43,376 nt of DNA from an uncultured Nitrososphaerota archaeon. GTDB taxonomy: Archaea; Asgardarchaeota; Njordarchaeia; Njordarchaeales; Panguiarchaeaceae. The stretch is taken from NCBI GenBank assembly GCA_964636085.1, contig CAZWPQ010000009.1, positions 1 to 43,376 on the forward strand. Direction: 5' to 3'. The translations under genes were made by a program, and so were the position numbers. Below the pieces are notes generated by a model, which was not told the DNA's origin, did not search any database, and saw only the letters and a list, made by a program, of their open reading frames with translations. Shown one piece after another: positions 22,295-33,405 of the stretch (the first letter of the stretch is position 1; the number at the start of each line of letters is the position of its first letter).

Positions 22295-22649
22295 TTCACA
22301 TTTAATCCATGCTTGTTTTTTCATTCATATTACACTGATTAATCACATCATAAACGCATAGAGACCCAAATCATTCAAATTGGCATACCCATACATCAGT
22401 AATGTATAGAGATTATGAAGAACAGATCGAAAATATGATTATTGCGAAAATTGCGTCTAACGAATATAAAACCACTGGTAAAAGTCATCAACAAAATCCA
22501 GCATTCTCAATATGTACCATTTCAACGTACAAGCAGCAAAGGAAACGCGATAAAGTTAAAGCTTTAAAAAAATATACAAAATAATATATTAGGAGAACAC
22601 TATAGGGGGTCTTGCCAAGGAGTCCCGCATACCGCCTAAGGGAATAAGG

Positions 22650-22724
22650 GGAGGGGTGGAGTAGTGGTAGCTCGTAGGCGTGGCAGGCCTAAGGCCGCGG
22701 GTTCGAGTCCCGCCCCCTCCACCA
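22650..22724 (+). tRNA. tRNA with Ala anticodon (GGC) and atypical A3-U70, CCA encoded
   Basis: GGAGGGG-TG-GAGT-AGTGGTA-GCTC-G-TAGGC-GTGGCAG-GCCTA-AGGCC-GCGGG-TTCGAGT-CCCGC-CCCCTCC-A-CCA folds into a complete cloverleaf. Confidence 0.9.
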
Positions 22725-22800: not shown

Positions 22801-24591
22801 CTAGATTCTGACAGTTTTAACACGCTCTACCGTATTTTCTGTGGCTCTTAGTATCATCACTTCGTAGTTTGATAAATCCATTACATGAAAATATCCGATT
22901 GTGGGTGATATTCCTATGTCCCTCTGCCATGTTGTTAGGCCCTCAAAGGATCCAGGAGATAATATCGCCGTACCTTTATATGTGCCTACACTATATATGT
23001 GTAGATGTGCTGTAAGGACTACATCCGGCACCTCATCAATAACAAGTATATCATCTTCTATCGGCGCTAGTGAGAGAACCCCCCACTCTGGGTATAGATG
23101 CCTATATCTAAGTAATTCAGCAACTATTCGGTTGGGTTCTTTTAGTGGTATATTTAGCAATCCAGAAAGTCTTTCAAGCCCTACACCATGATACATCAAT
23201 ATTTTTACACCGTCTATTCCAATCATCGAGGGATTAGAGAGTATCCTAACATTGGACAGGTCATATAGCGGGGCCGCTACTTCTTCGCTAATTGGTGGCT
23301 GAGGTATCATTCTTGTCGATGCATCATGGTTTCCTGGGATACAGATTATTAATTTTCCATCTGGTATCATCCCTAGATATTTTGCGAGAACTTCATATTG
23401 TTTTTTCTGGTCTGGTATTGCCAGTTCATTTTTCTGTTGTGGATATACACCTACACCATCAACTAGATCACCTACAAGGAGTATATATTCTACCTCTTGG
23501 GCTATTTCGTTCATTTTTTCGTCCTTCATTTCGCCCCTTATAAATTTTATTAGATTCTCGAACTGTTTCTTCATAAACACTCCGCTTCCAACATGAAGAT
23601 CTGCAGCTATTAATACCTTCTTTGAAGTGGATGTCTTATGTCTCTCTCTAAGCCTTGGAATATCAGGAAAAATTATGTCCCTAGCGATGACAAAGTTCTT
23701 GCTTTTAACTGCCTCTATCCTTACGGCTACAACACAATCTGGTATTATATGTTCAAATTTCACTTTGAGCTCGGGATATCTATCAAATGGAAGATAAATC
23801 CTAACGCGACCGTATTCGTCATCGGCGGTTATTATTCCCCCTCTTCCTTTTTTCGACTCACTTTTAGAATCAACCATCACAACCATATACACATCCTCAT
23901 ACTTGCCAGGCGCAAGATTAACCGTGTTCATTAATTTGCCGAATACATTGCTGGCGATTATATCCCTAAGTTTTTTGTAGCGACTTTGAAAATATGATTT
24001 GAATGCATCGATAGAATCACTTATAGTGTACCAATCTTGGAATTTTATTATCTCTATCTCTGGCACTTTTTGTCTTGACTTAGAAGGAATTACATACTTT
24101 TTGGTATATTCAACCCTAGGTTTTACTGGAGGTACTATCATTTTTGGGGCCACATCTAGTTCAGGGGGGATAGATAGCACTTTTGCCTTTTTTTCTGCTT
24201 CGATTGAGATAGGAGGTTGTTTTTTTAATGCTAACACTGATGAATTTTGTTGTTTAGGCTCTTGTTCTCTTTCCCTTACATGTTTTGATATTAATGACTC
24301 CAATGTGGTAATTTCTCTTATTCTAGATATTCTTCGAGTCCTACCTGGCCTCGCAGAGGATAAAACCTCCCGAAGTACCTCACTTAGTAATCTATTATCT
24401 AGTATGGGTGGATTTCTCTTCCTAATATACACCTCTATATTGGCCATTATCGTATCGAAGAGTTGTCGCGGTAATGTTGTCTTAAGCGAATAAAGCACCA
24501 TAAATGCAGATGGTGTTATATTTATTCCCAAGTTCCTAACAATTTGGAGAATAAGACTTTCTGCTTTCTCTCTATTCTCTATAAAAAACAT
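22801..24591 (-). CDS. DNA polymerase II (PolD) small subunit DP1
   Basis: YFQSRYKKL, OB fold, ADLHVGS, GDLVDGVGVYPQQ, PGNHD, YHG, RHLYP, AHLH. Confidence 0.95.
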   Translation of the reverse strand: MFFIENREKAESLILQIVRNLGINITPSAFMVLYSLKTTLPRQLFDTIMANIEVYIRKRNPPILDNRLLSEVLREVLSSARPGRTRRISRIREITTLESLISKHVREREQEPKQQNSSVLALKKQPPISIEAEKKAKVLSIPPELDVAPKMIVPPVKPRVEYTKKYVIPSKSRQKVPEIEIIKFQDWYTISDSIDAFKSYFQSRYKKLRDIIASNVFGKLMNTVNLAPGKYEDVYMVVMVDSKSESKKGRGGIITADDEYGRVRIYLPFDRYPELKVKFEHIIPDCVVAVRIEAVKSKNFVIARDIIFPDIPRLRERHKTSTSKKVLIAADLHVGSGVFMKKQFENLIKFIRGEMKDEKMNEIAQEVEYILLVGDLVDGVGVYPQQKNELAIPDQKKQYEVLAKYLGMIPDGKLIICIPGNHDASTRMIPQPPISEEVAAPLYDLSNVRILSNPSMIGIDGVKILMYHGVGLERLSGLLNIPLKEPNRIVAELLRYRHLYPEWGVLSLAPIEDDILVIDEVPDVVLTAHLHIYSVGTYKGTAILSPGSFEGLTTWQRDIGISPTIGYFHVMDLSNYEVMILRATENTVERVKTVRI

Positions 24592-30459: not shown

Positions 30460-30552
30460 GGGCCCGTGGCGTAGCCAGGGGAAACCTTATCCTGAAAGCG
30501 CGTCCGGCTCATAACCGGACGGTCGAGGGTTCAAATCCCTCCGGGCCCACCA
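30460..30552 (+). tRNA. tRNA-Ile2 (CAT) with a 15-nt D-loop intron (30482-30496), CCA encoded
   Basis: GGGCCCG acceptor stem and CCGG-CTCATAA-CCGG arm are typical of archaeal Ile2 (agmatidine) tRNAs. A CAGG/CCTG helix with 3-nt bulges defines the intron; spliced length is 78 nt. Confidence 0.85.
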
Positions 30553-33306: not shown

Positions 33307-33405
33307 GGGCCCGTGGCGCAGCCAGGAGTCCCACCCTGAAAGCGCGGTGGCCTCCTATAGGGGGAAAGCCACGTGTCGCGGGTTCAAATCCCGCCGGGCC
33401 CACCA
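33307..33405 (+). tRNA. tRNA-Arg (CCT) with two introns (33329-33340 in the D-loop; 33358-33366 at 37/38), CCA encoded
   Basis: Removing TCCCACCCTGAA and TAGGGGGAA gives a 78-nt cloverleaf with anticodon loop CTCCTAA, A20 and a GGGCCCG/CGGGCCC acceptor stem. Both junctions form bulge-helix-loop motifs. Confidence 0.85.

Follow-up and report, generated by a model that had tools for sequence, protein, structure and literature searches.

Can a tRNA that carries an alanine anticodon, but lacks the base pair by which alanine tRNAs are recognized, still deliver alanine? The G3:U70 pair of tRNA-Ala is the founding example of a tRNA identity element, and the question is raised by a gene in the stretch of DNA analyzed here (the window, 43,376 nucleotides from an uncultured archaeon of the Njordarchaeales), which encodes a tRNA-Ala(GGC) with A3:U70 at this position (Table 1). 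A first interpretation made from the letters alone, which we call the sequence-only reading, offered as explanations a G:U-independent alanyl-tRNA synthetase (AlaRS), charging with another amino acid, RNA editing, or a role outside translation. From the comparisons described below we consider it probable that the gene encodes a functional tRNA-Ala and belongs to a lineage-wide, G:U-free alanine identity system of the Njordarchaeales, in which AlaRS has co-evolved with its substrates.

Table 1. Position of the tRNA-Ala(GGC) gene and its elements in the window.
Feature	Position	Strand	Details	Basis
tRNA-Ala(GGC) gene	22650..22724	+	75 nt, intronless, CCA encoded	ARAGORN + Rfam RF00005
A3 instead of universal G3	22652	+		sequence
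U70, Watson-Crick partner of A3	22718	+		sequence
Acceptor stem, 5' strand GGAGGGG	22650..22656	+		sequence
Acceptor stem, 3' strand CCCCTCC, with discriminator A73	22714..22721	+	CCCCTCC at 22714-22720, A73 at 22721	sequence
Encoded CCA	22722-22724	+		sequence
Anticodon loop G32-U33-G34-G35-C36-A37-G38	22680..22686	+	anticodon at 22682-22684	

The gene is well formed. Its match to Rfam RF00005 spans the full model and reaches 63.5 bits, where the gathering threshold is 29, and the acceptor stem is as it was first described: seven of seven pairs are Watson-Crick, A3-U70 among them, and none is G:U. Other features of a tRNA-Ala are in place (NGC anticodon, 7-nt loop, U33, A37, A73, G1:C72 and G2:C71), and the one that is missing is the major AlaRS determinant, G3:U70. 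An alignment of 25 intron-free orthologues and paralogues (alignment A2) folds into a flawless cloverleaf in which 11 pairs show compensatory changes, and its 3:70 pair (column 3/72) is A:U in 19 sequences, G:U in five and U:A in one. Together with the RF00005 score and the encoded CCA, these compensatory pairs bear out the original view that the gene is intact and not a decaying pseudogene. A single-sequence MFE fold yields no cloverleaf (z = -1.57), as is common for GC-rich tRNAs; both the covariance model and the alignment fold recover it. The unusual G32/G38 loop was also read correctly, with G32 confined to the window's genome, position 32 being A or U in the orthologous GGC isoacceptors, and G38 found in three other genomes as well (G003, G010 and G013).

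The identity of base 22652, which the sequence-only reading had singled out for verification, is A both in close relatives and in a metagenome contig from a hydrothermal-vent DNA run (X1), which spans 22400-22721 with zero differences; this run may be the source sample of the assembly. Contigs of two other runs, X2 and X3, leave position 22652 uncovered. Flanking DNA is unconserved among four congeners, whereas the tRNA itself is conserved. Upstream, a small ORF of ~60 codons (window 22403-22585, plus strand) occupies much of the gap between a 290-aa gene and the tRNA, and an AT-rich, promoter-like stretch (~22565-22596) is followed by a 50-nt GC-richer leader and then the tRNA. A 596-aa ORF on the minus strand (22801-24591) converges on the gene; it has Metallophos and DNA_pol_E_B domains and resembles the small subunit of DNA polymerase D.

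Elsewhere in the window's genome (G000; 2.41 Mb in 102 contigs, 83% complete), ARAGORN applied to the whole assembly gives two further tRNA-Ala genes, with anticodons CGC (contig C1) and UGC (contig C24), the latter intron-bearing and miscalled as a serine tRNA. The GGAGGGG/CCCCTCC stem is common to all three isoacceptors, and no canonical G3:U70 tRNA-Ala, with anticodon GGC or any other, was found by ARAGORN in this 83% complete assembly; the other isoacceptors, which the sequence-only reading had proposed to inspect, share the anomaly. The 3:70 pair is G:C or C:G in the other 39 of 42 tRNA genes, the three tRNA-Ala genes being the sole exceptions. Since G1, G2 and A73 are shared by the Val, Lys, Phe, Arg and Met tRNAs of this genome, a further discriminator is needed for tRNA-Ala. 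Two other tRNAs in the window are irregular in their own ways: tRNA-Met(CAT) at 30460-30552 has an insert in the D-loop region, and tRNA-Arg(CCT) at 33307-33405 combines an insert in the D-loop with an intron in the anticodon loop.

To place the gene in its lineage, every findable tRNA-Ala was gathered from the 14 species-level genomes of the order (Ca. Njordarchaeota, Asgard), which are metagenome-assembled genomes (MAGs) of 66-91% completeness. In family f1, which holds the window's genus (five genomes), A3:U70 is present in 15 of 15 genes, all with the GGAGGGG 5' strand, and in f2 (one genome, G005) it is present in both genes found. Family f3 (seven genomes) is mixed, with 11 A3:U70 genes, three U3:A70 genes (GGUCGGG/CCCGACC, restricted to the CGC isoacceptor of G006, G008 and G010) and three G3:U70 genes, all of which belong to a single genome, G013. 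The 34 genes of these three families thus comprise 28 with A3:U70, three with U3:A70 and three with G3:U70, while the basal family f4 (G007) has canonical G3:U70 (GGGCGGG/CCCGUCC) in three of three. None of the 37 tRNA-Ala genes of the order has G:C or C:G at 3:70. All seven acceptor pairs are Watson-Crick in every one of the 31 A:U and U:A genes, with no G:U at 2:71 or 5:68. A3:U70 occurs in 12 species-level genomes assembled by several groups, and the bins come from independent studies (Guaymas GBS bins, JZ-1 hot spring, M288, GB_136, M2 and a co-assembly). The recurrence of the same stem in the other tRNA-Ala genes of G000, together with A3:U70 in 11 further species-level genomes, shows that the change is due neither to chance nor to error.

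Searches of 400 Asgard genomes with two patterns identical except at position 3 give the same picture. The A3 pattern matched in 12 genomes, namely 11 Njordarchaeales and one Heimdallarchaeote (G111); the G3 pattern matched in 221, and among the Njordarchaeales solely in G007 and G013. The twelfth A3:U70 genome of the order, G011, was missed because its copy has C33. This replacement of the near-universal U33 in tRNA-Ala(GGC), giving the loop U-C-GGC-A-A, is seen in two members of genus g3 (L030:1402-1478 in G006 and L009:1501-1576 in G011). Several Njordarchaeales also have tRNA-Ala introns at non-canonical sites (between 33 and 34 in L006, in the D-arm in L068 and in the variable region in L064). 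In g3, physical linkage of the genes for enzyme and substrate is seen in four genomes (L038, L039, L042 and L012, from G012, G013, G009 and G008, respectively), where tRNA-Ala(CGC) lies ~170-1,200 bp from the AlaRS gene; G006 has the two ~8 kb apart on one contig.

When the A3:U70 pattern was run on one genome per species (185,579 species), the sole other genome with several A3:U70 tRNA-Ala genes was the same Heimdallarchaeote, 'Ca. Heimdallarchaeota archaeon S146_22' (G111). Two isoacceptors were found, with anticodons GGC and CGC and the stem GGACCGG/CCGGUCC, and its family mate G110 has G3:U70. By these comparisons G111 switched to A3:U70 independently of the Njordarchaeales. The G111 bin also contains a G3:U70 tRNA-Ala(UGC), on L263 (G111:C521:1-4894), where it accompanies bacterial-looking tRNA-Lys and tRNA-Trp genes and adjoins a VgrG/phage-baseplate-like gene; contamination or a mobile element is the probable source of this contig. 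Elsewhere in the scan we found scattered single genes, often with imperfect stems. In the one such case that was checked, a Methanococcoides MAG, the genome has, in addition to the variant, a tRNA-Ala with the usual G3:U70 and an AlaRS of canonical type (MYDSHGIPP). A match in Haloarcula is not a tRNA-Ala; the G3:U70 genes of that genome are canonical, and its AlaRS is of the LYDSHG type. Fully paired A3:U70 genes with alanine anticodons occur in bacteria, in Pseudescherichia vulneris, three Paenibacillus species, Heliophilum fasciatum, an Opitutus MAG and Clostridiales RUG363 (loci L215, L208, L211/L223, L189, L193 and L224); the Opitutus gene is a near-twin of the adjoining tRNA-Ile. These sporadic prokaryotic genes share the acceptor change with those of the Njordarchaeales, but they are single and often degenerate copies, in contrast to the complete Njordarchaeal set.

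If alanine tRNAs have changed, the enzyme that reads them might be expected to carry a trace of the change. The window's genome has one AlaRS (PF01411, 314.6 bits, on contig C10), with 378 bits to the A. fulgidus enzyme (3wqy), 407 bits to that of P. horikoshii (2zze) and E values of 1e-111 to 1.4e-120 against archaeal structures, and it shows the tRNA-synt_2c domain, editing HxxxH motif and C-terminal domain of an archaeal-type AlaRS. It appears as two ORFs (576 and 305 aa) because of a 10-N scaffold gap (L031:1494-1503), which lies inside the editing domain, and the downstream piece begins at the HxxxH motif; a split enzyme like that of Nanoarchaeum equitans was rejected on these grounds, and annotation of the gene as two ORFs or as a pseudogene is to be expected. 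Each of 12 Njordarchaeal genomes gives one AlaRS match, with open frames of 811-987 aa in the relatives.

In the A. fulgidus enzyme, G3:U70 is contacted by Asn359 and Asp450, and only Asp450 substitutions relax discrimination against Watson-Crick 3:70 pairs, with charging of the wild-type tRNA unharmed (PMC6055181; PMC8583063). Inspection of these two residues, which the sequence-only reading had pointed to, gave a divided answer: the major-groove Asn is kept (N352 in G000) and Asp450 has become Leu448, but the loss of Asp is not diagnostic by itself. Many Asgard AlaRSs from genomes that keep G3:U70 have a different residue there (E, R, Q, V or T), and the basal, G:U-bearing G007 has Val. We therefore rejected it as a specific correlate; loss of Asp450 is at most a permissive precondition and not a signature of the switch. 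Loss of the Gly-rich motifs of C-Ala (GGxxGG ... GGG) was rejected as well. They are present in 15-16 of 16 Asgard outgroups and lost in Njordarchaeal families f1-f3 (L035-L043), and they are missing in both f24 Heimdallarchaeotes (L139 and L140), that is, in the G:U-bearing G110 as well as in G111.

Other changes follow the tRNAs more closely. Compared with 16 outgroups, AlaRSs of the A:U clade carry R345K (A. fulgidus numbering), G363A or G363C at a glycine that is conserved in 16 of 16 Asgard outgroups and lies four residues past Asn359, and a 2-residue insertion directly before the Asp450 helix. In genera g1 and g3, which represent two of the three switched families, Ser451 has become Asn, giving (F/L/I/M)Y(L/I/V)N(Y/H)G; the Asn position is S, T or A in 17 G:U-bearing outgroups. 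The Heimdallarchaeal pair differs in the same way, with LYDSHGIPP in G110 (G:U) and FYTNYGIPP plus a 1-residue insertion in G111 (A:U). A degenerate DNA pattern run over the same 400 Asgard genomes, with a reversed pattern as control, found Y-x-N-[Y/H]-G-x-P-P within AlaRS solely in Njordarchaeal g1 and g3 (the revertant G013 included) and in G111; the ten remaining matches fell in ORFs that are short or unrelated, with a frequency close to that of the control. A homologous-protein search with AlaRS residues 415-475 returned one close relative and no further lineages. The motif appears to track the tRNA switch, imperfectly: G005 (A:U) keeps Y-I-S-H-G, G013 (back to G:U) retains the Asn, and G111 retains Gly at the position of A. 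fulgidus 363. Because there are only two independent origins, the argument for co-evolution is statistically weak. Among the explanations first offered, a G:U-independent AlaRS is nevertheless the one that is favored by the clade-wide loss of G:U, the single AlaRS per genome and the apparently convergent change of a minor-groove motif in two lineages.

The AlaRS tree suggests how such a system could have arisen. G007 is basal in the order (98/94), f1, f2 and f3 form a clade (100/100), and G013 lies inside g3 as sister to G006 and G010 (91/88), a topology for which one gain and one reversal are most parsimonious. In this history the ancestor had G3:U70 and an AlaRS already devoid of the Asp; all three isoacceptors switched to A3:U70 once, at the base of f1-f3; within one subgroup of g3 the CGC isoacceptor later exchanged A:U for U:A; and all three G013 isoacceptors returned to G:U. 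Loss of the acidic residue is placed before the tRNA switch since the basal, G:U-bearing G007 already has Val at this position, and since the A. fulgidus Asp excludes Watson-Crick pairs, its loss probably enabled the switch.

Tolerance of three different pairs, but never G:C or C:G, suggests that the enzyme needs a "non-G:C" pair at 3:70. AlaRS may recognize such a pair in an otherwise all-G:C acceptor helix, in addition to G1:C72, G2:C71 and A73, and in thermophile tRNA sets with all-G:C acceptor stems a non-G:C 3:70 pair is still a unique mark of tRNA-Ala. The recognition domain would have been remodeled from Y449-D450-S451-H452-G453, which reads G3 in A. fulgidus, to Y-(L/I/V)-N-(Y/H)-G with a 2-residue insertion, and at Gly363 to Ala or Cys. 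Rejection of G:C might operate through the minor groove, with the hydrophobic-plus-Asn motif sensing that no guanine 2-amino group occupies the Watson-Crick position. On balance, and with less assurance than we attach to a G:U-free alanine identity system as such, we lean towards the view that the most conserved of the known tRNA identity elements has been replaced in the Njordarchaeales and, independently, in one Heimdallarchaeote. Their AlaRS would have passed from reading of the G:U shape to reading of A:U or U:A as a weak Watson-Crick pair, by means of the Y-(hydrophobic)-N-(Y/H)-G motif. If so, no earlier example of a cytosolic alanine system without G:U would exist in any domain, and this one would have been reached through loss of the excluding Asp, the tRNA switch, fine-tuning of the enzyme and one reversal.

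It is also conceivable, if rather improbable, that 3:70 is no longer read at all, identity having moved to A73, G1:C72, G2:C71, the elbow or the tRNA-Ala-specific variable loop AGGCC, and that the pair has drifted neutrally. The occurrence of A:U, U:A and G:U within one genus whose AlaRSs are closely related would fit such drift, as would the degenerate Gly-rich motifs of C-Ala in the clade. Against this, G:C and C:G are absent from all 37 tRNA-Ala genes of the order while filling 39 of 39 other G000 tRNA genes; moreover, the pair is identical among isoacceptors in most genomes, G1, G2 and A73 are held in common with five other tRNA families (Val, Lys, Phe, Arg and Met), and the AGGCC variable loop is also found in G:U-bearing relatives.

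Somewhat less probable again is a post-transcriptional modification or editing of position 3 or 70, such as A-to-I, which would restore a wobble-like geometry for a conventional AlaRS. Archaeal tRNAs are heavily modified, which lends the idea some credit, but we know of no editing at acceptor position 3 in archaea. The chemistry that would serve A3:U70 cannot make the U3:A70 of three genomes G:U-like, the convergent changes in the AlaRS motif would be left unexplained, and I3:U70 was inactive in the classical E. coli work, as summarized in PMC6055181. We regard as very unlikely the involvement of a helper protein or an unrecognized second synthetase that would charge these tRNAs in place of the canonical AlaRS alone. 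The MAGs are incomplete and a short AlaX-like ORF (231 aa) is present on contig C4 of G000, leaving some room for such a factor; AlaX-type proteins, on the other hand, are editing factors and not synthetases, the 12 Njordarchaeal genomes each have a single AlaRS-class match, and that AlaRS carries clade-specific changes exactly at the elements that read 3:70. A remodeled AlaRS that reads a non-G:C pair remains our preferred interpretation.

The union of an alanine anticodon with loss of the alanine determinant might instead suggest that GCN codons have been reassigned or are deliberately mistranslated, the tRNA carrying another amino acid in the manner of the ProRSx/tRNA-ProA pair; this was among the first suggestions, for GCY codons, and it does not withstand the codon evidence. 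In an alignment of EF-2 from eight A3:U70 genomes and 21 outgroups, columns in which the outgroups have invariant alanine are filled by GCN in 53 of 56 cells of the A3:U70 genomes (GCT 28, GCA 10, GCG 9 and GCC 6), a degree of conservation on par with that of other amino acids' columns. Outgroup-invariant alanine columns of AlaRS contain GCN in 115 of 138 cells in the order's rows, the revertant G013 included. GCN thus fills alanine columns as faithfully as other codons fill theirs, all three isoacceptors are altered and a canonical set was not found in these genomes, and no such archaeal reassignment is reported in large code surveys (bioRxiv 10.64898/2026.04.02.715157). We therefore hold this explanation to be highly improbable, and by these alignments GCN appears to be read as alanine still, with reassignment or systematic mistranslation excluded. 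As the only alanine decoders found are A3:U70-type tRNAs, they must be charged with alanine, presumably by AlaRS; on the same ground the non-translational role that had been entertained is excluded. An assembly artefact or decaying pseudogene, to which the support of the window locus by one low-depth contig might point, can be dismissed given 31 changed genes (28 A:U and three U:A) in 12 Njordarchaeal species-level genomes from several studies, two more in G111, and a perfect structure with covariation.

If alanine is indeed specified without G:U, these archaea provide a natural experiment on how the "second genetic code" can change, and they do so as a series in which the switched families and their U:A variant can be set beside a basal family with G:U, a genome that has reverted to it and a second lineage that made the switch independently. 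Other readers of G3:U70 (the AlaRS editing site, AlaX and DTD) must have adapted or lost their dependence on it. Among prokaryotes, eukaryotes have their closest relatives in the Asgard archaea, to which the Njordarchaeales belong. On the practical side, tRNA annotators and identity predictors that rely on G3:U70 will mis-score Njordarchaeal genes, and genetic-code engineering may find in the Njordarchaeal AlaRS and tRNA-Ala a pair that is orthogonal to systems dependent on G:U.

No publication on a G:U-free alanine system turned up in a literature search that paired U70 with the names of Asgard, Njordarchaeal and TACK groups. With the canonical G3:U70 system, represented by the A. fulgidus complex (PDB 3WQY/3WQZ), the Njordarchaeal system shares an archaeal-type AlaRS, G1:C72, G2:C71, A73, NGC anticodons, the major-groove Asn and the meaning of GCN as alanine. 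It differs in an acceptor stem without any G:U, in a 2-aa insertion followed by Y-(L/I/V)-N-(Y/H)-G where the canonical enzyme has Y-D-S-H-G, and in Ala or Cys for A. fulgidus G363. The A3:U70 variant is reportedly a textbook non-substrate in A. fulgidus, in work said to be that of Naganuma et al. in 2014.

None of the mitochondrial, N. equitans and Streptomyces cases matches a complete G:U-free cytosolic alanine system. In Streptomyces, tRNA-ProA and ProRSx likewise combine an alanine anticodon with absence of the alanine determinant, but they form an extra tRNA and synthetase beside the canonical set and mistranslate alanine codons, whereas in the Njordarchaeales the whole set has changed and GCN means alanine. 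The N. equitans AlaRS-alpha charges minihelices independently of G:U in vitro, while the tRNA-Ala genes of that organism keep G3:U70 (PMC11392972). It offers a precedent for archaeal AlaRS activity without need of G:U, like that proposed here, but the effect is one of a split subunit in vitro, and the AlaRSs of the Njordarchaeal relatives are intact frames. Animal mitochondria have G2:U71 in D. melanogaster and G5:U68 in human, where mt-AlaRS is G3:U70-independent (PMC6451123). These systems are also natural, with a 3:70 pair other than G:U and an adapted synthetase; in contrast to the Njordarchaeal tRNAs, which have no G:U and belong to free-living organisms with a full tRNA set, mitochondrial tRNAs keep a translocated G:U and reside in reduced organelles under strong drift. 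Exceptions to G3:U70 are held in a review to be confined to mitochondria (PMC9976931), and a free-living archaeal order with G:U-less alanine tRNAs contradicts that generalization.
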